A stretch of DNA of 64,000 nt from a bacterium. Lineage in GTDB: Bacteria; DRYD01. The stretch covers positions 35,233-99,232 of the forward strand of contig JBCNVB010000018.1 in NCBI GenBank assembly GCA_039630415.1. Direction: 5' to 3'. Below the pieces are notes generated by a model that was not told the origin of the DNA, did not search any database, and saw nothing but the letters and a program-made list of their open reading frames with translations. Of this stretch, positions 48,274 through 61,042 are shown one piece after another (the first letter of the stretch is position 1; each line of letters begins with the position of its first letter). The position numbers were made by a program, and so were the translations under genes.

Positions 48274-48346
48274 ACCGAAAATATAATTCTATTTTTCAAC
48301 TTATTAACCTTCATACAAAAAGATAAATCCTTCTACATGTTACTTA

Positions 48347-48667
48347 TTATTTTCCTTGTTGGGATTTATCATTAGGTATAAAGAATGCTCCTACTATTCC
48401 TCCTAGAATCATTCCTATTAAAGCCCCTGGTATACCTAAAAGAGGTATAGTTGCAGCTGCACCGAATAAACTCCCCACAGTAATAGGAGCAATATAATCT
48501 ACAGCTGATTTATCTTTTATAGATTGATACTGATTTTTCAAGTATATATCTTCAGTTGAGTATAAATTTATGTCATTCTGAATTAAATATTGCTTGCTTA
48601 TTTTACCTATAGTTTCGTAATTTGTTTCTATAAATTTGTTAGGGTTTATTTTCATTTTATAGATCAC
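48347..48667 (-). CDS. hypothetical small protein with a C-terminal glycine-zipper membrane segment
   Basis: 106 aa. C-terminal GSLFGAAATIPLLGIPGALIGMILGGIVGAFF. Confidence 0.35.
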   Translation of the reverse strand: MIYKMKINPNKFIETNYETIGKISKQYLIQNDINLYSTEDIYLKNQYQSIKDKSAVDYIAPITVGSLFGAAATIPLLGIPGALIGMILGGIVGAFFIPNDKSQQGK

Positions 48668-48725
48668 CCCTTTCCCATTGCTTTAACTTTATGAATCATT
48701 TGTCTCCTTATACAGAATTGTACTA

Positions 48726-49886
48726 TCATACTTTAAAAACCTCCCTCATTAGTAAAATACCTATTAACTTTGATACGATCGAGAATAGGATAGTGTAGAT
48801 TGTAGAAAATGAAATAAGATACCCCATAATTGAGTTACCTATAAGGAAAGAGATTCCCATAAATGTGTACAACATTCCCCAGTCTTTAGCCATTGGGTTA
48901 AGTAGCTTAGAAAAAGTAGCTTTAATAATGCATCCTTGAAAAGCTATTGATATTCCCCACATTAATACTCCTATAAATACTATCCAAATAGAATCAGCTA
49001 GGATGAAAAGTGAAGTAAATAGAAAGAAAATCATAGCTGATACACTGCTAATTATCATATTTTTATCAAACCAAAGTCCAAGTAAAAATGCTCCTATAGC
49101 ACTTACAAACATAGCCAAGGAATATAGAAGAGGTATGAAAGACAAACTAATTACTTTTTTTTGTTCCCAATAAAATGAAATTATAGAAAAATCCAAAAAC
49201 CCTAAACAAATCATACAGCAAGAAAGGATATATATCATCTTTATCTTTTCTAGATTTATTTTTTTTAGATTGTCCGATTGTTGACTTTTGGTATTATAAG
49301 ACCAATTATAATGTAAAAGCTTTCTTTGTGTGATGTAGTATGATAGAATTAAAAGAAGAAACATGCTTAGAATTGAAGGTATAAAGAGAAACGTAAGGAT
49401 AGAGGTATAGTTAATCTTGTTGGAAAGTAGAAGAGATACAAAGAGTGGTCCGGTTATAGCTCCAATTTGGTCTAAAAATTGATGAATTCCAAACATCTTA
49501 CCAGCCTGTTGAGAAATACCAGACTGTTGAGAAATGATTGATATTATAAAATCTCTAGAGGGTGTTCTTATAGATTTTCCTAATCTTTCGAGTAAAAATA
49601 ATGTACTAGCTGTATAGATACTATTAAAGAAAGCTATTAAAGGTATACAAAGTAAAAGATAATATCCTATATTCATTGTAGCAAGATATGATTTGAATTT
49701 GTCAGCTATGTATCCAGCGGGCAATCTGAAAGAGTAAGATATAAAATAAGCTAATCCTCCTATAAGTCCAATATAAAAGCTATTAGCTCCCAAGGATGCA
49801 AAAAAAGGTCCAGCAAATGATCTAAACGATTCGTACGTAAAATCCGATAGTAAACTTACAAAACCTAATATAACTATAACCCACAT
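48726..49886 (-). CDS. MFS transporter
   Basis: 386 aa protein with about 12 TM helices and an MFS-like loop organisation. Confidence 0.6.
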   Translation of the reverse strand: MWVIVILGFVSLLSDFTYESFRSFAGPFFASLGANSFYIGLIGGLAYFISYSFRLPAGYIADKFKSYLATMNIGYYLLLCIPLIAFFNSIYTASTLFLLERLGKSIRTPSRDFIISIISQQSGISQQAGKMFGIHQFLDQIGAITGPLFVSLLLSNKINYTSILTFLFIPSILSMFLLLILSYYITQRKLLHYNWSYNTKSQQSDNLKKINLEKIKMIYILSCCMICLGFLDFSIISFYWEQKKVISLSFIPLLYSLAMFVSAIGAFLLGLWFDKNMIISSVSAMIFFLFTSLFILADSIWIVFIGVLMWGISIAFQGCIIKATFSKLLNPMAKDWGMLYTFMGISFLIGNSIMGYLISFSTIYTILFSIVSKLIGILLMREVFKV

Positions 49887-49926
49887 TTTGATATACTCTC
49901 CTCTAGTCGAATTTAACCTATAAAAA

Positions 49927-49949
49927 TCATATCCTTGTTTATGATATGA
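49927..49949. promoter_or_regulatory. perfect 7-bp inverted repeat (TCATATC-N9-GATATGA) upstream of the A/B array, a candidate operator
   Basis: Read directly from the sequence. It lies about 50 nt upstream of the first array gene, whose RBS is taggagcg. Confidence 0.3.
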
Positions 49950-50000
49950 GAGGATAAATCAATTAAAAAAATTAAAATCAATATATAGGAGCGATTTGTA

Positions 50001-50735
50001 ATGGATAATATTATAGTTTATGAACTAAAGCCCTTAAAAACAAAACTCAAACTGCTTTATGGGATCATAATATCCTTGTTTAGTTTTATTTCTTTTGTCT
50101 TTATTCTGTATTACTGGGATATTACGTTATATTTCGGTATAGATGAAGAAATATTGGTAACAATACTCCTGATAATACTATCTTTGTATGTTGGTGGAGT
50201 TATAAAAGATGATTTAGATTATATTTTTGGTAAGGTAATAAAATCACACTTATTAAGAATAATTACTGGTTCTAAAAACATAAAGGTTTACAGATGGTAT
50301 GATTTGAGTATAAAGCAGCGTGATTCAATACATACTGAATTTCTTTTATACTTGAAAGAATTGTATGATACTTGTTTGGAAAAGAATTCTAAAGAATTTA
50401 TAAAAAAAGTTATTAACTATTTAGAAGACATAGATATTATTGAAACAAAATCCTTACGAGGTTCGAATTATAGGCCCAATTTACCTAAATATGTTGAAGT
50501 GATAGCACTTTTTAAGGATTCTTCTAAAGCTTCAATAACTACACTTAAAATAGGTAAAAACGAAAACATAGTATTTTTAGTATTAATTCCTCAAGAAAAT
50601 AAGGATAAGTTAATACAACCCATATATATACGACAAAATTTGGATATTTCTATATTTTCAAATGATGAACAAATAAGTAATGCACTGCAAGGTTATAGGG
50701 AGATTATATGGAATCTGAGCAAACTAGGTTTCTAA
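50001..50735 (+). CDS. array family A, copy A1: N-terminal two-TM hairpin plus cytoplasmic domain, conserved C-terminal ...W.L.KLGF
   Basis: 244 aa, with an RBS (aggag) upstream. Paralogous to 51473, 52232, 54500 and 56014. Confidence 0.6.
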   Translation: MDNIIVYELKPLKTKLKLLYGIIISLFSFISFVFILYYWDITLYFGIDEEILVTILLIILSLYVGGVIKDDLDYIFGKVIKSHLLRIITGSKNIKVYRWYDLSIKQRDSIHTEFLLYLKELYDTCLEKNSKEFIKKVINYLEDIDIIETKSLRGSNYRPNLPKYVEVIALFKDSSKASITTLKIGKNENIVFLVLIPQENKDKLIQPIYIRQNLDISIFSNDEQISNALQGYREIIWNLSKLGF

Positions 50736-51457
50736 TAGAATACTACTGTGTATATGCAATAACCCTTACTTATGTGATAGTAGTTATATACTATTTGATA
50801 AACAAAATCGTGAGAGGAAAGAATATTTTTATAAGTGTAAATTTAAGTGTTTCTCAGTATCAAATGGTTTTAAACTTTATTGCTCTGATACTTATGCTTC
50901 TTACAATATTTATCATAATACCCACCTTTTCGAAACATTTACAAAATAAAATAGAAAAAAAGTACTCGTATAGTATAAATCAAAAAATATTTAAAAATGG
51001 TCTAAAAGCAGAAAACTTGGAAATTGAGAAGTACATACCTTCCAATTCTGATTTTTTCAAATCTTTTCTACAAAATCAAAATCTATCAATTAATAAAGTA
51101 AGAATAGTTGAAGAAAATTCACTTATTATTAACTATCATAAGTCAAAAAGAAAATACAAGATATATTTGTCAGAGATACGAATTTTAGAGAGAACAGGAA
51201 GTTTTTATAGCAAAACTAGATATTATAGACAAATGTTTAGTGGCTTATGCATAGGAGTTCCAAATGAAGTTTTTAACACCACAAAAATATATAAATTTCC
51301 ACTTTATAAGTACTACACAACTTCTGATTACTCTATAGTGCTGGTATATTTATCTGAAAGTCCTTTCATATTTCCTTTGTTTGAAAAGATTACTGATGAA
51401 TTAATACAAAATAAATTACAGGAAATACTGAGATTCGTGAACAATTACTTGATGTGA
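50708..51457 (+). CDS. array family B, copy B1: N-terminal two-TM plus about 170-aa domain, conserved FSGLCIGVPNEVFN and ESPFIFPLFEK motifs
   Basis: 249 aa. Its start overlaps the A1 stop by 28 nt in a different frame. Paralogous to 52952, 53755, 55183 and 56757. Confidence 0.6.
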   Translation: MESEQTRFLIEYYCVYAITLTYVIVVIYYLINKIVRGKNIFISVNLSVSQYQMVLNFIALILMLLTIFIIIPTFSKHLQNKIEKKYSYSINQKIFKNGLKAENLEIEKYIPSNSDFFKSFLQNQNLSINKVRIVEENSLIINYHKSKRKYKIYLSEIRILERTGSFYSKTRYYRQMFSGLCIGVPNEVFNTTKIYKFPLYKYYTTSDYSIVLVYLSESPFIFPLFEKITDELIQNKLQEILRFVNNYLM

Positions 51458-51472
51458 TTTTTGGAATAACAA

Positions 51473-52219
51473 ATGGATGAAATTATATTTTATGAGTTGA
51501 AACCTCTAAAATCAAGGCTCAAATTACTTTACGGAATTATAATATTCGTGTTCAGCATTATTTCGTTTATCTTTATTTTGTACTATTGGGATATTTATGT
51601 TTATTTTAGTATGGATGTAGAATTCTTAGTATCGATGATAACTTCAATACTGTTAATAGTATTATCTGCGTATATTATTGGACTTATTAAAAGTGATATG
51701 GATCATATTTTTGGAAAAATAATAAAATTGCACATATTAAGGATAGTTACTGGTTGTAAAGATGTAAAAGTGTATAGATGGAAGGATTTAGACTCAAATC
51801 AACAACATTCAATAAGCAAAGAACTAATCGAATATCTAGAAAAAGCATATGAATCCATAATAGAAAGAAAAGTCATAGAATTTTTAATCAAGGTTTTTGA
51901 ATATTTGCAAAATATAGACACTGCAGAGAATCCATTTGTAAAAGACCAAGAATATTGGCAAAGAATGCCAAAATATACCGAAGTAATAGAATTATTCAAG
52001 GATTCTTTCAGAGTTTTAATAATTACTCTTAACACAAATGAGAATGAAAACATAGTATTTCTAGTATTGATAAATCAACAAAATAAAAACAAGATAATAG
52101 AACCTATATGCATACTACAAAATATGGAAATATCCCTATTTTCAAAGGATGAAGAAATAATTAATGCGATACAAGGATATAAACAAATTGTATGGAATTT
52201 GAATAGACTTGGTTTTTAA
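51473..52219 (+). CDS. array family A, copy A2 (no intact B partner)
   Basis: 248 aa. It is followed only by a 13-codon remnant of a B start (MEFE*TWFLIEYY). Confidence 0.55.
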   Translation: MDEIIFYELKPLKSRLKLLYGIIIFVFSIISFIFILYYWDIYVYFSMDVEFLVSMITSILLIVLSAYIIGLIKSDMDHIFGKIIKLHILRIVTGCKDVKVYRWKDLDSNQQHSISKELIEYLEKAYESIIERKVIEFLIKVFEYLQNIDTAENPFVKDQEYWQRMPKYTEVIELFKDSFRVLIITLNTNENENIVFLVLINQQNKNKIIEPICILQNMEISLFSKDEEIINAIQGYKQIVWNLNRLGF

Positions 52220-52231
52220 TAGAATATTATA

Positions 52232-52971
52232 ATGGATGATATTATAGTTTATGAATTGGAACCTTTAAAGGCCAAATTCAGATTGCTTTATAGGATTGTG
52301 ATATTTTTGTTTAGTATTATTTCATTTTTCTTTATTCTCTATTATTGGGATATTACAGTCTATTTTGGTATGAGCAGGGAAATATGGATAGCAGTAATAT
52401 TGATAATACTATCACTATGTATTGGTTTAGTTATAAGAGGACATATAGATTATATCTTTAGTAAAATAATCAAATTACACATATTAAGAATAGCTACCGG
52501 TTGTCAAAATATAAAAGTTTACGAGTGGGAAGATTTAAATATAAACCAACGAGATTCAATACACACCAAAATTCTTTCACATTTGAAAGAATTCCATGAC
52601 ATATATGTAGAAAAATATTCCAAAGAATTTGTAAAAAAGGTTATTGATTATTTGGAAAATGTACATACTAGTGAAAAATATCTTTACAAAGCCCAAATTA
52701 TAGTCAAAACGAAAGAAAATATATCGAAGTAATAGAACTTTCCAAGGATTCATTCAAAGCTTTAATAATTATGCTTGAAATAGACAGTAAAGAAAACATA
52801 ATATTTCTTGTGATTAGTGAGGAAAACAAGGATAAACTAATACAGCTCATACATATACCCAAAAGCTTAAAGATTTCAATGTTTTCAAACGATGAACAAA
52901 TAAGCAATGCATTACAGGGCTATAAGCAGATTGTATGGAGTTTGAATAAACATGGAGTTCGAACAAACTAA
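52232..52971 (+). pseudogene. array family A, copy A3, disrupted by a frameshift (two ORF fragments 52232..52732 and 52771..52971)
   Basis: The homology to A1/A2 continues in a different frame after about 52700 (...KYIEVIELSKDSFKALII...). The C-terminus is altered to KHGVRTN by a 17-nt tandem duplication. Confidence 0.6.
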
Positions 52972-53740
52972 GTTTTTGGCAGAATATTACTTTGTTTATG
53001 CAATAACTATCGTTTATATATCAATCATTATTTACTATGTTGTTTACTTTGTTTACTATTCGATAAAAAAAATGGCAAGGAACAAGAATGTTTTGCTAAT
53101 AAATATTTTGGGTATAAGCCTTAAAATCACACAACCTCAGTTAGCTACAAGCTTTATAACTGCAACAGTTATGTTTCTTACAATATTCGTCATAATACCA
53201 ACTTTATCGAAACATGTACAAAATAAAATAGAAAAAAAGTATTCACATATTATAAATGAAAGAATATTTAAAAGTGGTTTCAGATTTGAAAACCTAGAAG
53301 TAGATAAATACATACCTTCAAATGCTAATTTTTTCACCTATTTTCTGCAAAACCAGAATTTATCAGTTTATAGGATTGAAATAGTTGAAAAAAATTCCTT
53401 TGTGATTAACTACCTTAAGTCAAATAAAGAATACAAGATATATTTATCAGAAATACAGATCTTTGAGGTAAAAAAGAGCAGTTCTATTAGATCTTACCGT
53501 ATACATTACGAAGAGTTGTTTAGCGGACTGTGCATAGGAATTCCAAACGAAGTTTTTAATACCAGAAAAATAAATAACTTCTCAGTTTATAATTATTACA
53601 TTACTTCAGATTATTCTATAGTATTGGTAAACTTTTCTGAAAGTCCCTTTATATTTCCCTTGTTTGAAAAGATTAGTGATGAGTTGATACAAAAAAAGTT
53701 AAGGGAAATATCAAAACTTGTGAATAATTATTTAATGTAG
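52952..53740 (+). CDS. array family B, copy B3
   Basis: 262 aa. Closely similar to B1 (LFSGLCIGIPNEVFNT, SESPFIFPLFEKISDELIQ). Confidence 0.6.
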   Translation: MEFEQTKFLAEYYFVYAITIVYISIIIYYVVYFVYYSIKKMARNKNVLLINILGISLKITQPQLATSFITATVMFLTIFVIIPTLSKHVQNKIEKKYSHIINERIFKSGFRFENLEVDKYIPSNANFFTYFLQNQNLSVYRIEIVEKNSFVINYLKSNKEYKIYLSEIQIFEVKKSSSIRSYRIHYEELFSGLCIGIPNEVFNTRKINNFSVYNYYITSDYSIVLVNFSESPFIFPLFEKISDELIQKKLREISKLVNNYLM

Positions 53741-53754
53741 ATCTTTTAAAGCGT

Positions 53755-54495
53755 ATGGGTTTCGAGCAAATTAAATTCATAATGATATATTACTTGGCAT
53801 GTATACTAACTTTTACAATAGTTACAATTCTAGGTTATTTTATAGCCATACAAAAATATACAGAAGGTCCCAAATGGATATTGATACCTATTACTGCCAT
53901 AATTGGAATAATCGCAGCCTATTTTATTGAACCAATATACAGAGATAAGCTACAAAGCAAATATTCAGATTCAATAAACCAGATCATATTCAAAAGTAGC
54001 ATTAGAATTGAAAATTTTGAGATACAAAAGTACATTCCTAATAAATCCGACTTCTTCAAGAGTTTTCTTGAAAAACAGAAAATATCTCATTATGAGTATA
54101 GTGTAAACGAAAATAATTCACTTATAATTAAGTACACAAAACAAAGGGAAAAGTATACTATACTTTTGTCGGAAATAAAGATTATTGAAGTTAGACCAGT
54201 AATTGGAGCTTATAGGACACCTCATAGATACGGTAGAAATCAAGAACAGTATACACGTGAACTTCTTTTTAGTGGCCTTTGCATCGGTATACCTAGTAAA
54301 ATATTAAATAAAGAAAGAATGTATCCACACTTATATTTCAGAGCATATGAAAAGCCAGATTATTCAGTAATACTGTCCTATTATCCTTCTCAAGAAAGTC
54401 CGTTTAAATTCTCCTTGTTTGAAAAAATAAACAATCAAATAGTCCAGCAAAAACTACAAGAAATTATATCAGTCATAAAAAGATATTTACTATGA
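53755..54495 (+). CDS. array family B, divergent copy B3b (no A partner immediately upstream)
   Basis: 246 aa. Retains MGFEQ, LFSGLCIGIPSKILN and ESPFKFSLFEKIN. Confidence 0.55.
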   Translation: MGFEQIKFIMIYYLACILTFTIVTILGYFIAIQKYTEGPKWILIPITAIIGIIAAYFIEPIYRDKLQSKYSDSINQIIFKSSIRIENFEIQKYIPNKSDFFKSFLEKQKISHYEYSVNENNSLIIKYTKQREKYTILLSEIKIIEVRPVIGAYRTPHRYGRNQEQYTRELLFSGLCIGIPSKILNKERMYPHLYFRAYEKPDYSVILSYYPSQESPFKFSLFEKINNQIVQQKLQEIISVIKRYLL

Positions 54496-54499
54496 GTAT

Positions 54500-55210
54500 A
54501 TGAATTTGGAAAGTTTCATAAATTATCAAAAAAAACTCATAAGAATCAAATCAATAATAGGAACTATATTTTTAATTCCATTTTTTATAGTTATTACCAT
54601 TATTATCATACCTTATTTTTGGGACATTGACTACTATACTGACTCTTACAATAACACTTTTCAAAAAATGCTGTGTTCATGTTTTACAATATTTTTTCTT
54701 TTGCTTCCAACATTATTAGTTATTCTACAGAGCATTCTTGACAGTTATACAAAATTAAAACACTATATCCTAGAAAAAACTACAAATGCAAGAGATATAC
54801 AAATTTTACCTTGGGATAGTTTCAATTCCAAAGATCAAGATCATATTATTAATTCTCTTTGTTTACACTTGAATGATTTGAAAAATTCCCTAGATCCAAA
54901 CCTAAAAAAATACATAGATGCAGTTTTAAATTATATATCCAAGTCTAGAGATATCATACGTAACGAAGTGATTATAGCACAATCTAAACATTTTCTAAAA
55001 GCCATAGTAATTAGTGTAGTTCTAATACAAGAAGAAACAATTTCATTCATACTATTAAGTCCCGATAAGGATAAAACACATCAAAAACTTGAAATAGTCT
55101 ATACACCTAACACCACACTTATTCCACTTTTTTATAGTGAGAAAAACATTACAGGTGTTGTAAATCACTACAAGGAAATAGCATGGAGATTGAAAGAACT
55201 TGGTTTTTAG
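54500..55210 (+). CDS. array family A, divergent subtype A'4
   Basis: 236 aa. Shares the two-TM N-terminus, the H.IL.E.TN...QILPWD motif, and the C-terminal HYKEIAWRLKELGF. Confidence 0.55.
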   Translation: MNLESFINYQKKLIRIKSIIGTIFLIPFFIVITIIIIPYFWDIDYYTDSYNNTFQKMLCSCFTIFFLLLPTLLVILQSILDSYTKLKHYILEKTTNARDIQILPWDSFNSKDQDHIINSLCLHLNDLKNSLDPNLKKYIDAVLNYISKSRDIIRNEVIIAQSKHFLKAIVISVVLIQEETISFILLSPDKDKTHQKLEIVYTPNTTLIPLFYSEKNITGVVNHYKEIAWRLKELGF

Positions 55211-55953
55211 TAGAGTGTTACTTAATGTGCTTCATAACAACTGTCTTTTTATTTGCAGGTATCTACTCTTTACTTTTGAGACTTATAGAAGGCTTACCAT
55301 ATCTATCGTACAAGATACCTTTCGAGTCACTATTGAAACCAATATTTTTTAAATATAAATTAATTTTCAAATTGATATATTTTGCTATATCATTATTTTT
55401 GACGTATACTATAACTCCAACATTATTTAAATTTATTGAACACAAAGCAGAGAATAGATACTCTTATTACTTATGGAGAAAAACTTTCAAAAACGTACAT
55501 ATAGTTGGAGAAATAGAAATACAGAGATATGAACCTTTCGGAGCTAATCTTTTCAAATATATCCTGAAAAATCAGAAATTCACGAAAAAAGAATTAATAA
55601 TATACGAAAGAAATACACTAATGATTTACTACCACAAACAAACAAAAAAATATGCTGTAGCTTTAGCAGAGATAAAACTAGTTGAATATGAAAAAGTTAT
55701 AAGAGGAGGTGTTACAAATCAATATCTATTGTTTAATGGATTTGCTTTATTGATTCCAAATGAGATTTTAAATTATCAGATACCTAATAATTACTCAGTA
55801 TTTCTTGAGATTAGGAGTTCAAACTACACTGTACTAATGATAAATCATCCTGATAGCCTTTTTAAATTTGAATTACACCAAAAAGTTGATAATCAAAAAA
55901 TTCAAAATAGATTAGAAAAAATATTACAGGTAGTTAAAAACTTCTTATTATGA
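55183..55953 (+). CDS. array family B, divergent subtype B'4
   Basis: 256 aa. Starts MEIERTWFL, overlapping the A'4 stop by 28 nt. Contains the LLFNGFALLIPNEILN and FKFELHQKVDNQKIQ motifs. Confidence 0.55.
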   Translation: MEIERTWFLVECYLMCFITTVFLFAGIYSLLLRLIEGLPYLSYKIPFESLLKPIFFKYKLIFKLIYFAISLFLTYTITPTLFKFIEHKAENRYSYYLWRKTFKNVHIVGEIEIQRYEPFGANLFKYILKNQKFTKKELIIYERNTLMIYYHKQTKKYAVALAEIKLVEYEKVIRGGVTNQYLLFNGFALLIPNEILNYQIPNNYSVFLEIRSSNYTVLMINHPDSLFKFELHQKVDNQKIQNRLEKILQVVKNFLL

Positions 55954-56013
55954 AAAATTTTTCACAGGAAATATTAGAATTTGTAAGTAATTAATCTAAT
56001 ATAACCTATCAAC

Positions 56014-56784
56014 ATGAGTTTAGATAATTTTATAAACTATCAAAAAATGCTTATAAAAATCAAAACAGTAGTAGGAACTGTATTTTTTATTCCATTTTTT
56101 ACACTTACTGCTATTACCCTCACAGCCTATTTTTGGGACACTGATTACTATAAAAACCACTATTTTCACGAATTTGGAAAAGTAATATGTATATGTAGTA
56201 CATCACTTCCTTTTTTAGTTTCAATAATACTGTTCATAAAAATTAGCATTCATGAGAATTATACGAAATTAAAGTATCATATTTTGAAAGAAATTACAAA
56301 TACCCAAAATGTACAAATTTTACCTTGGGATGATTTAAATATTGAAGACCAGGTCTCCATCATTAAAACTTTTTATCTACATTTAGATGATTTAACAAAG
56401 TCTCTAAATCTAAATCCAAAACTAAAAAATTGTGCATATACAGCTTTACGTTATTTGTCAAGGTGTATACCAGATAAGGATCTTGACATACCAATACAAA
56501 CAGAATCATTTGTAAAAGAGCCTATTAGTATAAATGATGTAGTTCTGGTGCAAGTAATCAAAGATTTTCTAAAAGCTATAGCAATCAATGCTACTCTGAA
56601 TACAAAGGAAACAATTTCATTCATATTATTAAATCCAGACATGGACAGAACATATCAAAAACTTGAAATAGTGTATACACCCAATTCTACACCTAGTCCA
56701 TTTTTCTACAATGAGGTATTCATTGATGGTATAGTAAATCACTATAAGGAAATAGCATGGATACTGAAAAAATTTGGTTTTTAG
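56014..56784 (+). CDS. array family A, subtype A'5
   Basis: 256 aa. Paralogue of A'4 (HYKEIAWILKKFGF). Confidence 0.55.
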   Translation: MSLDNFINYQKMLIKIKTVVGTVFFIPFFTLTAITLTAYFWDTDYYKNHYFHEFGKVICICSTSLPFLVSIILFIKISIHENYTKLKYHILKEITNTQNVQILPWDDLNIEDQVSIIKTFYLHLDDLTKSLNLNPKLKNCAYTALRYLSRCIPDKDLDIPIQTESFVKEPISINDVVLVQVIKDFLKAIAINATLNTKETISFILLNPDMDRTYQKLEIVYTPNSTPSPFFYNEVFIDGIVNHYKEIAWILKKFGF

Positions 56785-57551
56785 CAGAGTATTACGTAAT
56801 ATGCACTATAACATTTATCTTCTTACTAATGGGTATTTACTCTTTTCTATATGTTCTTTTACCTTCAGCGAGTCAACCTGATAGATCAAGTCCACTACTT
56901 AGAAGATTTGTGGAATCACTATTTTTTAAATTAAAACCACTATTTTTTAAATATAAATTAATCTTTCAGTTTGTATACTTTGTCTTATCATTATTCTGGA
57001 CGTTCATAGGATGTTTTATGTTATTCGAATTGGCCAAACATCAAGTAGAAGCAAGGTATTCCCATTCTTTATGGAAAAGATTTTTCAAAAATATACGTGT
57101 AGTAGGCGATATAGAAATACAAAGATACGAACCTTTTGGTGTTAATGTATTCAAAGATATCCTTAAAAATCAGAAACTCTCTGAGAAAAAGTTAGTAATA
57201 TATGAAAAGAATGCACTAATAATGTACTATCATAAACAAACAAAAAAATATATTATAGCTTTAGCAGAGATGATTTTGATTGAATACGAAAGAAAAAAAA
57301 CACGTATTATTACCGACCAGAAACTTCTGTTTAATGGGCTTATTATATCCATTCCAAATGAGATTTTAAATTATAAGATGCTAGATAACTACTCAGTATT
57401 TCTTGAGATTAGAAGTTTAGACTATACTACGATCATGATAAACTATCCTCAAAGCCCTTTCAAATTTGAATTACAAGAAAAAGTTGATAATCAAAAAATT
57501 CAAGATAGATTAGAAAAAATATTGCAAATAGTCAGAAGCTTTTTGCTATAA
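56757..57551 (+). CDS. array family B, subtype B'5
   Basis: 264 aa. Paralogue of B'4. The corA ATG (57553) follows its stop (57549..57551) with a 1-bp gap. Confidence 0.55.
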   Translation: MDTEKIWFLAEYYVICTITFIFLLMGIYSFLYVLLPSASQPDRSSPLLRRFVESLFFKLKPLFFKYKLIFQFVYFVLSLFWTFIGCFMLFELAKHQVEARYSHSLWKRFFKNIRVVGDIEIQRYEPFGVNVFKDILKNQKLSEKKLVIYEKNALIMYYHKQTKKYIIALAEMILIEYERKKTRIITDQKLLFNGLIISIPNEILNYKMLDNYSVFLEIRSLDYTTIMINYPQSPFKFELQEKVDNQKIQDRLEKILQIVRSFLL

Positions 57552-57552
57552 A

Positions 57553-58644
57553 ATGAGATACAAAAAGCTTAGTATATTATCTAAAAGGAAAAACAAAGTT
57601 GGTCAACTACCTCAGAGTTATATCGAATCAATACAAAAAGATCAGCTAAAAGGTAAGATTGAGATTTTCAAGTTCAATTCAGAAAATCTGTACATGGATA
57701 CCATTTTGGATCCTCAAGATATCTCCAAACTAGAATCAATAATGCAAAAGATAGATAAAAAATACAACTACATAATAAATATAGATACCTTCCCAAATAA
57801 CATTATTCCAAAGATAATAAAGAACTATATAGACATAGATGATTTTATAATAGAGGATTTGCTGAACACTGATCAAAGGATAAAGTTTGAGTCAAGAAAA
57901 GGACTAGTATTTATTGTTATTAAAACTCCTGTAGAATATGATCTGGAAAAAATAAAACAAGATCAAGTAATCAAAATATACGAACAAATGTCTATAATAG
58001 CAACGGATAACATCATATTTGTGTTTCAGGAAGGTATCGAAGGAGATAACTTAGATCCCTTTAGAAAAAACATAAATAATCTAAAGCAAAACTCAATAGA
58101 ATTTTTTGTGTACTATCTTATAGACTTATGTATAGATAGGTATCTTGCTTTCATGGAAGATATAGAAGATAAACTTAGACAGGTCGAGAAAAAAATTTTT
58201 AGTCAAGAAAAATTTGACATAGAAGAAATCTACTTTTTAAGGAGTAATATTGGTATAATGAAAAGAGATTTCATAAATATTTTAGAGCTTGTAAAAACGC
58301 TCAAAGTATCCTACTTTTCAGAAAACATGAAATACTACACTCAAGATCTTCTTGATCATGCTTACAAAATGTTAGATATGTTGAATAATGTAGATGATTT
58401 TACTTCTTATTTGATGGAATCATATATTTCGATGATTAATTCAAAATTTAATGAAAGTGTAAGAATACTAACAGTAATTAACACAATTTTTGTTCCAGCG
58501 ATATTTATTGCAAGCATATATGGTATGAACTTTGAAAATATGCCTGAATTGAAATGGAAGTATGGATACTTCTTTACTTTATTTATCATCTTTTCAGCAA
58601 TTCTGTTTTCTTTGGCATATTTCAAGTACAAAAAGTACATATGA
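57553..58644 (+). CDS. corA: CorA-family magnesium/cobalt transporter
   Basis: 363 aa. The N-terminal cytoplasmic domain is collinear with T. maritima CorA. Two C-terminal TM helices carry the signature YGMNFENMPELKW (GMN motif). Confidence 0.85.
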   Translation: MRYKKLSILSKRKNKVGQLPQSYIESIQKDQLKGKIEIFKFNSENLYMDTILDPQDISKLESIMQKIDKKYNYIINIDTFPNNIIPKIIKNYIDIDDFIIEDLLNTDQRIKFESRKGLVFIVIKTPVEYDLEKIKQDQVIKIYEQMSIIATDNIIFVFQEGIEGDNLDPFRKNINNLKQNSIEFFVYYLIDLCIDRYLAFMEDIEDKLRQVEKKIFSQEKFDIEEIYFLRSNIGIMKRDFINILELVKTLKVSYFSENMKYYTQDLLDHAYKMLDMLNNVDDFTSYLMESYISMINSKFNESVRILTVINTIFVPAIFIASIYGMNFENMPELKWKYGYFFTLFIIFSAILFSLAYFKYKKYI

Positions 58645-60257
58645 GTCATAGATATATAAGCATTTTGTTTTGGCTGAGCATTTTTGTATATTTACTTCTT
58701 GGAATGAATAGCTTTATTTTTACTTATCCTGACGAAGGGAGAAATGCCTTTGCTACCCTATACATGATAAAATCAGGAGAATATATAGTCCCTTACTATA
58801 ACGGGGAAATAAGATATGATAAGCCTCCACTTCTGTACTACCTAGCTGCAATATCCTACAAGTTTCTATCCTTTTTTGGTGTAGAAAAGGTAGAGTTTAG
58901 TTTTAGATTAGTATCTGCTCTTGCAACTTTCTTTTCTTCAATAATTGTATATGAATTGAGCAAATATTTTATAAGTGGTTTATTTTATAGATATTTCAGT
59001 GTGGTAGTATACGTTAGCCTTTCAAATGTATTTGTTGAGTCAAAAGCGTTTGTTCCTGAACCACTTCTTTCCTTGTTTATAAACCTCTGTTTACTAAGCT
59101 TTTATAAAATATACCATGAAAATAACCTCAGGTGGAATATTGTTTTCTGGATAAGTTTAGGCTTGGGAATGCTAGCAAAAGGTATAATAGCGGTAATTAT
59201 TGTCTTTCTAGTAATATTTTGTTACCTCTTAATAAAAAAAGATTTAGGTTCAATAAAATTGATATTTAGGAATCTGTACAGCGTATTTTTAGGTTTACTT
59301 GTTGGAGTTAGTTGGTTTGTAATGGTTGGTATAAAAACACAGGGAGATTTTATTTATAAGTTTATAATGATTCATAATTTGGGAAGATTCACAGGGACTT
59401 CTAAAATGCATCTTAATCCTCTTTATTTCTACATTATCGTAATATTTGTTAATATCGTACCTCTATTTGAAATATTTGCTGTTTCCTTGTATTCCTTTAT
59501 AAGAAGCCTTTTAGATAAGCAAAGAACTTATAGTTTTCCACCAAATTTTAGTTTTCTTTTTGTATACTTTTTATCAATCTTTATTTTTTACAGTTTATCA
59601 CAAGGTAAAGTTCATCATTACATAATGCCGTGTTATATTCCTTTTTCTATCTTACTTGCATACTTTACAGAGAAGTATATATCTTTATACTTTAATAGGT
59701 TAGTTTTACTACTATCATTCATTCTTCCTTTATTAATCCTTTTCCAGAGGGTTTCGCAAGACTTTATACTAATCAAGAATGCTTTGCTAGTTTTGCTAAC
59801 AGCATTTAATTTAGTGTATTTCATTATACCCAAGAGATTTCTAGTAATCGCAGTAATAGTCAAGATATTTTTATTTTATATGTTTATAGTTTCACAGGTA
59901 GATAAATCTTTTCCCAACCAAAACAAACTTCTAGAACTAATCAAGGATAACTATATTTTGAAAGTTGGAGATATATCTACTCTATCTTTCTACAATCTTT
60001 ATATAAATAATTGCCATAAAACACCTGATCTATTTTATGCTATTCAATTACAGAGAATTGATGAAACAATTTATTTGGATATAGTAAGAAACTTAGAAAA
60101 TAACAGAAAAGTAATAATATTCACTAAACCAAGATATTTACAAAAAATGATGAGAATACTTGATAAACTTAGAATAAGTAATTTAGATACTCAGATAAAT
60201 AAAGTAACTGTTGCTCAATCAGTAATTTTTGCTATAACCCTAGATTTGGATAAATGA
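58641..60257 (+). CDS. ArnT/PMT-like (GT39/GT83) membrane glycosyltransferase
   Basis: About 538 aa polytopic membrane protein. The first periplasmic loop is YPDEGRNAFATLYMIKSGEYIVPYYNGEIRYDKPPL, and the DKPPL motif is typical of ArnT-family enzymes. The start is placed at the ATG at 58641, which overlaps the corA stop. Confidence 0.55.
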   Translation: MSHRYISILFWLSIFVYLLLGMNSFIFTYPDEGRNAFATLYMIKSGEYIVPYYNGEIRYDKPPLLYYLAAISYKFLSFFGVEKVEFSFRLVSALATFFSSIIVYELSKYFISGLFYRYFSVVVYVSLSNVFVESKAFVPEPLLSLFINLCLLSFYKIYHENNLRWNIVFWISLGLGMLAKGIIAVIIVFLVIFCYLLIKKDLGSIKLIFRNLYSVFLGLLVGVSWFVMVGIKTQGDFIYKFIMIHNLGRFTGTSKMHLNPLYFYIIVIFVNIVPLFEIFAVSLYSFIRSLLDKQRTYSFPPNFSFLFVYFLSIFIFYSLSQGKVHHYIMPCYIPFSILLAYFTEKYISLYFNRLVLLLSFILPLLILFQRVSQDFILIKNALLVLLTAFNLVYFIIPKRFLVIAVIVKIFLFYMFIVSQVDKSFPNQNKLLELIKDNYILKVGDISTLSFYNLYINNCHKTPDLFYAIQLQRIDETIYLDIVRNLENNRKVIIFTKPRYLQKMMRILDKLRISNLDTQINKVTVAQSVIFAITLDLDK

Positions 60258-61042
60258 ATATATTGATTATTTTATTTAGTGCAGGAATAGGCAAAAGGCT
60301 TAGGTTAGAGATCCCCAAACCACTTTGTCCTATTATGAAGACAAATCCACTAGATTATAACTTATCACAGTTAATTAGGTTTATGAATTCCATACCTTGT
60401 TACAACACTATGATATATATTAATCTGCATAAACAACCAAACATTGTATATGACCACCTATTTAAAAAATATCAAAAATTTATAGAAGAGCAAAAAATAA
60501 TTTTTATATATGAATCACAGCCTTTGGGACATATAGGAACGATTAATCTTCTGAAATATAACATAATCTCCTCAAATAAACTCGTTTTAATTAATTCTGA
60601 TACTCTGATACCCAACTTGGAAACCATCCTTGAAAAATTAATTCAAAAGGAACATAACTTTATGTTACTATATCAAATATTGCAAACACATAATTCAAAA
60701 ACACTAACTCATTTTGAAGTAATGCCTTATCTTAACTATTATAAAATAATCAAATATCATAAGGTAACACCAAATTCAACGAGAATCAATTTGTATACAG
60801 GTACAATGATAGTTAATATCAGTTACAACATTTCAAAATATCTATCCAAAGATCTTAGTAGCCTTAGTTTTCTTGATTTTGTTTCTTACCTAATAGAAAA
60901 TGATTTACTAGCTTTTTTTGTACCCAGGTTTTATGAAATTACATCTACGAGAGACTTGTTAGAAATTAATGTTTCATTTATTAAAGATCACTTATTTTTT
61001 GATATACTTTTTCCAACATTAAAGCCCTTGAACCTTTTATAA
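60254..61042 (+). CDS. sugar-phosphate nucleotidyltransferase-like protein
   Basis: 262 aa. N-terminal ILFSAGIGKRL resembles the NTP-transferase G-x-G-x-R-L motif. Overlaps the upstream gene by 4 bp. Confidence 0.4.
   Translation: MNILIILFSAGIGKRLRLEIPKPLCPIMKTNPLDYNLSQLIRFMNSIPCYNTMIYINLHKQPNIVYDHLFKKYQKFIEEQKIIFIYESQPLGHIGTINLLKYNIISSNKLVLINSDTLIPNLETILEKLIQKEHNFMLLYQILQTHNSKTLTHFEVMPYLNYYKIIKYHKVTPNSTRINLYTGTMIVNISYNISKYLSKDLSSLSFLDFVSYLIENDLLAFFVPRFYEITSTRDLLEINVSFIKDHLFFDILFPTLKPLNLL

Follow-up and report, generated by a model that had tools for sequence, protein, structure and literature searches.

What does a string of ten small membrane-protein genes of two alternating kinds do directly upstream of a corA gene in a hot-spring bacterium? 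Within the window (the whole 64,000-nt stretch that was analysed), positions 50001-57551 of the plus strand hold five family A genes, one of them a pseudogene, five family B genes and a 39-nt B remnant, and the last gene abuts corA. The initial annotation had placed the ten genes on the plus strand, and the open reading frame list agrees with its coordinates.

50001-50735, plus strand: A1, family A subtype 1, 244 aa; predicted TM helices at residues 18-36 and 50-68, then an alpha+beta domain
50708-51457, plus strand: B1, family B subtype 1, 249 aa; starts 28 nt inside A1
51473-52219, plus strand: A2, intact family A copy that has lost its B partner by deletion; dN/dS against A1 of 0.21
52192-52230, plus strand: B2 remnant, a dead B head reading MEFE*TWFLIEYY with an in-frame stop (three-frame translation); rest of the gene deleted
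52232-52971, plus strand: A3 pseudogene in two frames (52232-52732 and 52771-52971), with a frameshift and an altered tail
52952-53740, plus strand: B3, family B subtype 1, 262 aa, open reading frame
53755-54495, plus strand: B3b, divergent subtype-1 B copy, 246 aa, with a short TM1-TM2 loop and no preceding A gene
54500-55210, plus strand: A4, family A subtype 2, 236 aa, open reading frame
55183-55953, plus strand: B4, family B subtype 2, 256 aa; overlaps A4 by 28 nt
56014-56784, plus strand: A5, family A subtype 2, 256 aa, open reading frame
56757-57551, plus strand: B5, family B subtype 2, 264 aa; overlaps A5 by 28 nt

Tandem amplification of a two-gene cassette

The array arose long ago by tandem amplification of a cassette of two genes, A followed by B. 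Paralogy of the copies is far above chance (tblastn E 1e-6 to 1e-96), and protein identity is 53-63% inside a subtype and 24-35% across subtypes. The relationships among the A genes agree with those among the B genes, so the cassettes were copied as whole units, and the ancestral number in this genome was at least six, in two subtypes. Three intact pairs are left (1, 4 and 5), together with three intact solo genes (A2, B3 and B3b), the pseudogene A3 and the B2 remnant. Array genes are spaced 1-60 nt apart, where gaps of 12-60 nt had been given before. Turnover by frameshift, deletion and duplication had also been proposed, and all three kinds of lesion are seen. Besides the loss of most of B2, A3 has a -1 frameshift in a run of five A (52674-52678) and a tail changed by a 17-nt tandem duplication (52935-52968), and B5 has an in-frame 21-nt tandem duplication in its TM1-TM2 loop (56917-56957).

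The initial annotation had itself raised the prospect of a collapsed or duplicated repeat. The source is a metagenome-assembled genome (MAG), and AT-rich DNA gives many spurious open reading frames, both of which speak for an artefact of assembly or annotation. However, the cassettes are just 64-81% identical in DNA. Two independent Logan contigs of run SRR28200751 also match window positions 49565-51699 and 51939-53414 at 100% identity, across the junctions. One of them, L013, has the B2 remnant and both A3 lesions, the frameshift and the 17-nt duplication. The array is thus not an assembly artefact. Non-coding reading frames are likewise at odds with dN/dS values well below 1 and with homologues in a second MAG; the artefact reading is refuted, and we give it practically no credence.

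Two unrelated families sharing a coding junction

A and B are mutually unrelated proteins of about 250 aa (hhalign probability 0.2%). As had been noted before, each A and B protein opens with two hydrophobic helices, and the soluble domain behind them spans about 170 aa. In the models, each family begins with a hairpin of two membrane helices at the N-terminus; a juxtamembrane helix, a folded alpha+beta domain and a C-terminal helix follow. The predicted B structure has a pLDDT of 83.3 (five models, 79-83) and by DSSP shows seven strands and then the C-terminal helix. The best A model reaches 72.9, and the other four of the five lie at 42-56. The B sequence blocks first described as invariant, FSGLCIG.PNE and ESPF.F.LFEK, hold in subtype 1; in B4 and B5, of subtype 2, their counterparts are LFNGF..IPNE and (D/Q)S(L/P)FKFEL. 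The K/R bias indicates N-in/C-in topology for A in 5/5 sequences. In B the loop is richer in K/R than the N-tail in 6/6 sequences, and the topology becomes ambiguous when the basic stretch after TM2 is included.

The earlier statement that neither family has a name stands: A and B have no match in Pfam, NCBIfam, PADLOC, PHROGs, PDB sequences, phages or plasmids. By sequence comparison they appear to be two previously undescribed membrane-anchored protein families of narrow distribution.

One early idea was that they form a divergent bacterial PH-domain membrane pair of the YdbS/YdbT type. In such PHb2 (PF03703) pairs, for example DdE/DdF of enterocin DD14, both partners are required together; YdbS has 159 aa and 2 TM helices, and YdbT has 493 aa, 6 TM helices and three PHb2 domains (PMC8657885). 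The resemblance lies in adjacent co-oriented genes, each encoding a TM hairpin and then a small beta-rich domain ending in a helix, as the B fold does. In contrast to YdbS and YdbT, A and B are partners of equal size with 2 TM helices each, so that neither resembles YdbS or YdbT, and their soluble domains are about twice as large (about 170 aa versus roughly 70-100 aa for PHb2). None of 11 sequences matches bPH_2 at E<=10, NCBIfam gave no match either, and, unlike at the DdE/DdF locus, no bacteriocin genes were identified nearby. We regard this idea as very improbable.

In shape, the modelled fold resembles the alpha/beta subunit fold of actin-capping protein (CapZ) and sheet-plus-helix binding modules such as PDB 1ylx, PsiB, type III secretion chaperones and the immunity proteins TriTu and CdiI. 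The sequence identity is 6-13%, the fold is generic and the A model is of moderate confidence; the likeness is one of shape and is no proof of membership in a family. Unlike A and B, these proteins have no 2-TM hairpin as a membrane anchor.

The two families meet in a shared stretch of DNA. The initial annotation reported a 28-nt overlap of A and B in four pairs, which holds for three; A3 and B3 overlap by 20 nt because of the 17-nt duplication. Another copy of the 28-nt overlap, the fifth junction, follows A2 in the dead B2 head. The proposal that the A tail and the B head are dual-coded is borne out, with DNA identity across subtypes of 68-79% in the overlap versus 47-54% elsewhere in the genes. 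Shine-Dalgarno-like GGGAG or AAGGAA motifs stand 5-6 nt upstream of the B starts, within A tail codons: the GGGAG of B1 falls in the Y-R-E-I codons of A1, and the AAGGAA of B4 falls in the A4 tail. Since the B ribosome-binding site and start codon lie within the last 9-13 codons of A, the arrangement indicates that translation of B is coupled to that of A.

Paralogue dN/dS is 0.2-0.45 at dS 0.7-1.2, and the B soluble domain is the most conserved part (0.20-0.25). Values this far below 1 put the A and B reading frames under selection, which by this estimate is purifying in all intact copies. A plainer reading is that the array is a lineage-specific expansion of structural membrane proteins with no "system" logic, serving for example hyperthermophile membrane organisation, with copy number set by drift or dosage and several copies being lost. 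Orphan families in a poorly sampled candidate phylum, constraint relaxed to a dN/dS of up to 0.45, the decay seen in the pseudogene, remnant and solo genes, and the absence of the genes from close relatives would all suit it. However, the conserved dual-coded junction and the purifying selection in intact copies suggest a pair that works as a unit, and the B fold is predicted to be confident and well packed. We consider this reading unlikely, although it keeps a real share of our belief.

Relatives and genomic neighbours

The closest named relative of this genome is Candidatus Calescibacterium, and the Thermotogae setting first suggested was wrong. A word-index search of 5.8 billion proteins gave matches confined to the array itself. 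HMMER with A and B profiles against 1.84 billion representatives found only the array and one B-like protein, P0011, which adjoins an A homologue on a Ca. Calescibacterium sp. MAG (locus L001). This sister MAG, whose AccA is 78% identical to that of the present genome, carries a single A-B pair next to accA; the two genes of the pair do not overlap, and they are flanked by a DAO oxidoreductase and a member of a third family, C. Searches of six further relative loci, GTDB representatives, JGI metagenomes, IMG/VR, phages and plasmids brought up no A or B copy, and the accA regions fetched for other relatives had none. Within the sensitivity of these searches, the cassette is confined to the Ca. 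Calescibacterium hot-spring lineage. Since close relatives do without the genes, A and B are dispensable. They also evolve fast: between the two MAGs identity is 28% for B and 31% for A, in A over the N-terminus only, versus 78% for AccA. Synteny breaks off at the array, which lies next to tRNA-Val, and the sister pair sits at the same accA-adjacent breakpoint.

On the window, the array is flanked as follows.

49887-50000, plus strand: intergenic leader of A1; ribosome-binding site GGAG at 49988-49991; a divergent MFS gene lies on its other side
57553-58644, plus strand: corA, Mg2+/Co2+ channel family, 1 nt past the B5 stop; Pfam CorA E 3e-47, YGMNF motif (TIGR00383 E 2e-48, below the equivalog cut-off)
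58641-60257, plus strand: ArnT/PMT_2-like membrane glycosyltransferase (context), PRK13279 E 1e-37, below cut-off; its start and the corA stop share ATGA
60254-61042, plus strand: 262-aa gene (context) with a weak GlmU/MurU-like nucleotidyltransferase N-terminus, E 7e-4; overlaps the ArnT-like gene by 4 nt

The co-directional string, described at first as ending at corA, therefore continues for two more genes. The A/B complexes might then be accessory subunits of an envelope and cation-homeostasis operon with CorA, the ArnT-like enzyme and the nucleotidyltransferase, for example in sensing of or adaptation to Mg2+ or cationic stress. All these genes lie on the same strand, the B5-corA gap of 1 nt is followed by ATGA-type overlaps, and no terminator-like site was found on the plus strand from 48300 to 60500. 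The initial annotation had seen one promoter-like region upstream of A1; in a promoter scan such sites were no more frequent than in shuffled sequence, 90 versus 85 expected. Against such an operon, the 14.5 kb fetched around the sole other A-B pair contains neither corA nor an ArnT-like gene, and the leader holds no Rfam element, with no Mg riboswitch (M-box) or other riboswitch ahead of the array. Rearrangement of the region near accA is seen in every relative, so the corA adjacency here may be accidental. The earlier idea that A and B modulate the CorA channel is weakened by the same results, and the operon reading is unlikely, holding a modest share of our belief.

Candidate roles of the A-B pair

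The array also has the look of a polymorphic toxin-immunity locus: repeated, diverged two-gene cassettes with decayed copies and solo survivors, patchy among close relatives, at a synteny breakpoint, diverging very fast relative to AccA. The pair would then be a cognate membrane toxin-immunity or addiction pair, close to the diversifying cognate pairs that the initial annotation had suggested, or the array one of orphan immunity genes, with paralogues of distinct specificities. One protein of the pair would harm the membrane, and its counterpart would neutralise it. Unlike at such loci, no toxin, secretion, Rhs/CDI-type or defence domain and no phage signature was found in the Pfam, NCBIfam, PADLOC, PHROGs and phage/plasmid searches. 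Both partners are full-length 2-TM proteins, unlike a toxin tip with a small immunity protein, and whole-gene selection is purifying, not diversifying, with dN/dS below 0.5 throughout. The coexistence of intact solo A2, B3 and B3b is awkward if either family is toxic alone. We hold this reading to be quite unlikely.

The best reading, which we adopt tentatively and with less than even confidence, is that A and B form an accessory heteromeric membrane complex whose subunits are coupled in translation, and that it was amplified into variant versions. B would be translated by coupling to A, and the two, made together, would join by their hairpins to give a heteromeric membrane complex of four helices. 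The A domain would be cytoplasmic and the B domain, weakly by the charge rule, on the opposite face; the paralogous cassettes may be retained as variant-specificity or dosage versions. The role is most likely, at low confidence, an accessory one associated with the envelope, dispensable and fast-evolving, for example membrane protection or exclusion, and not that of a dedicated CorA regulator.

Several observations weigh against the coupled complex. The A model is of moderate confidence. Strict 1:1 pairing is not obligatory, since A2, B3 and B3b lack an intact partner, unless solo genes pair across cassettes. With no PADLOC or PHROG match and no mobile or defence genes among the neighbours, nothing links the genes to defence, toxins or phage, and the conservation of the B soluble domain is unlike that of an arms-race surface. 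In this genome, the close packing of the array with corA and the ArnT-like gene could be functional.

Among known membrane pairs, SMR-type EbrAB/YdgEF and CrcB pairs are opposite-topology antiparallel heterodimers of homologous partners from adjacent genes. The A and B genes are adjacent too, and the N-in bias of A is opposed by the loop-versus-tail bias of B, with the ambiguity noted above. Unlike those pairs, A and B are not homologous, and SMR and CrcB proteins lack large soluble domains.

Family C of Ca. Calescibacterium (L001 4544-5563, minus strand; L003 8786-9697) also bears on the orientation of B. It adjoins the A-B pair in L001 and likewise has a 2-TM hairpin, here with a soluble domain of about 200 aa. 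It differs in its long basic N-terminal tail, in having no preceding A gene and in its clear N-in/C-in topology, which counts against an opposite-face B domain if the two are kin. HMMER found no link between C and B, and the hhalign probability is just 22-33%. The hhalign alignment is nevertheless co-linear, scoring 33.8 versus a shuffle null of 13.9 +/- 2.5, and the two have a common C-terminal strand-helix motif (23.2 versus 12.3 +/- 2.1), so by profile comparison family C is possibly related to B.

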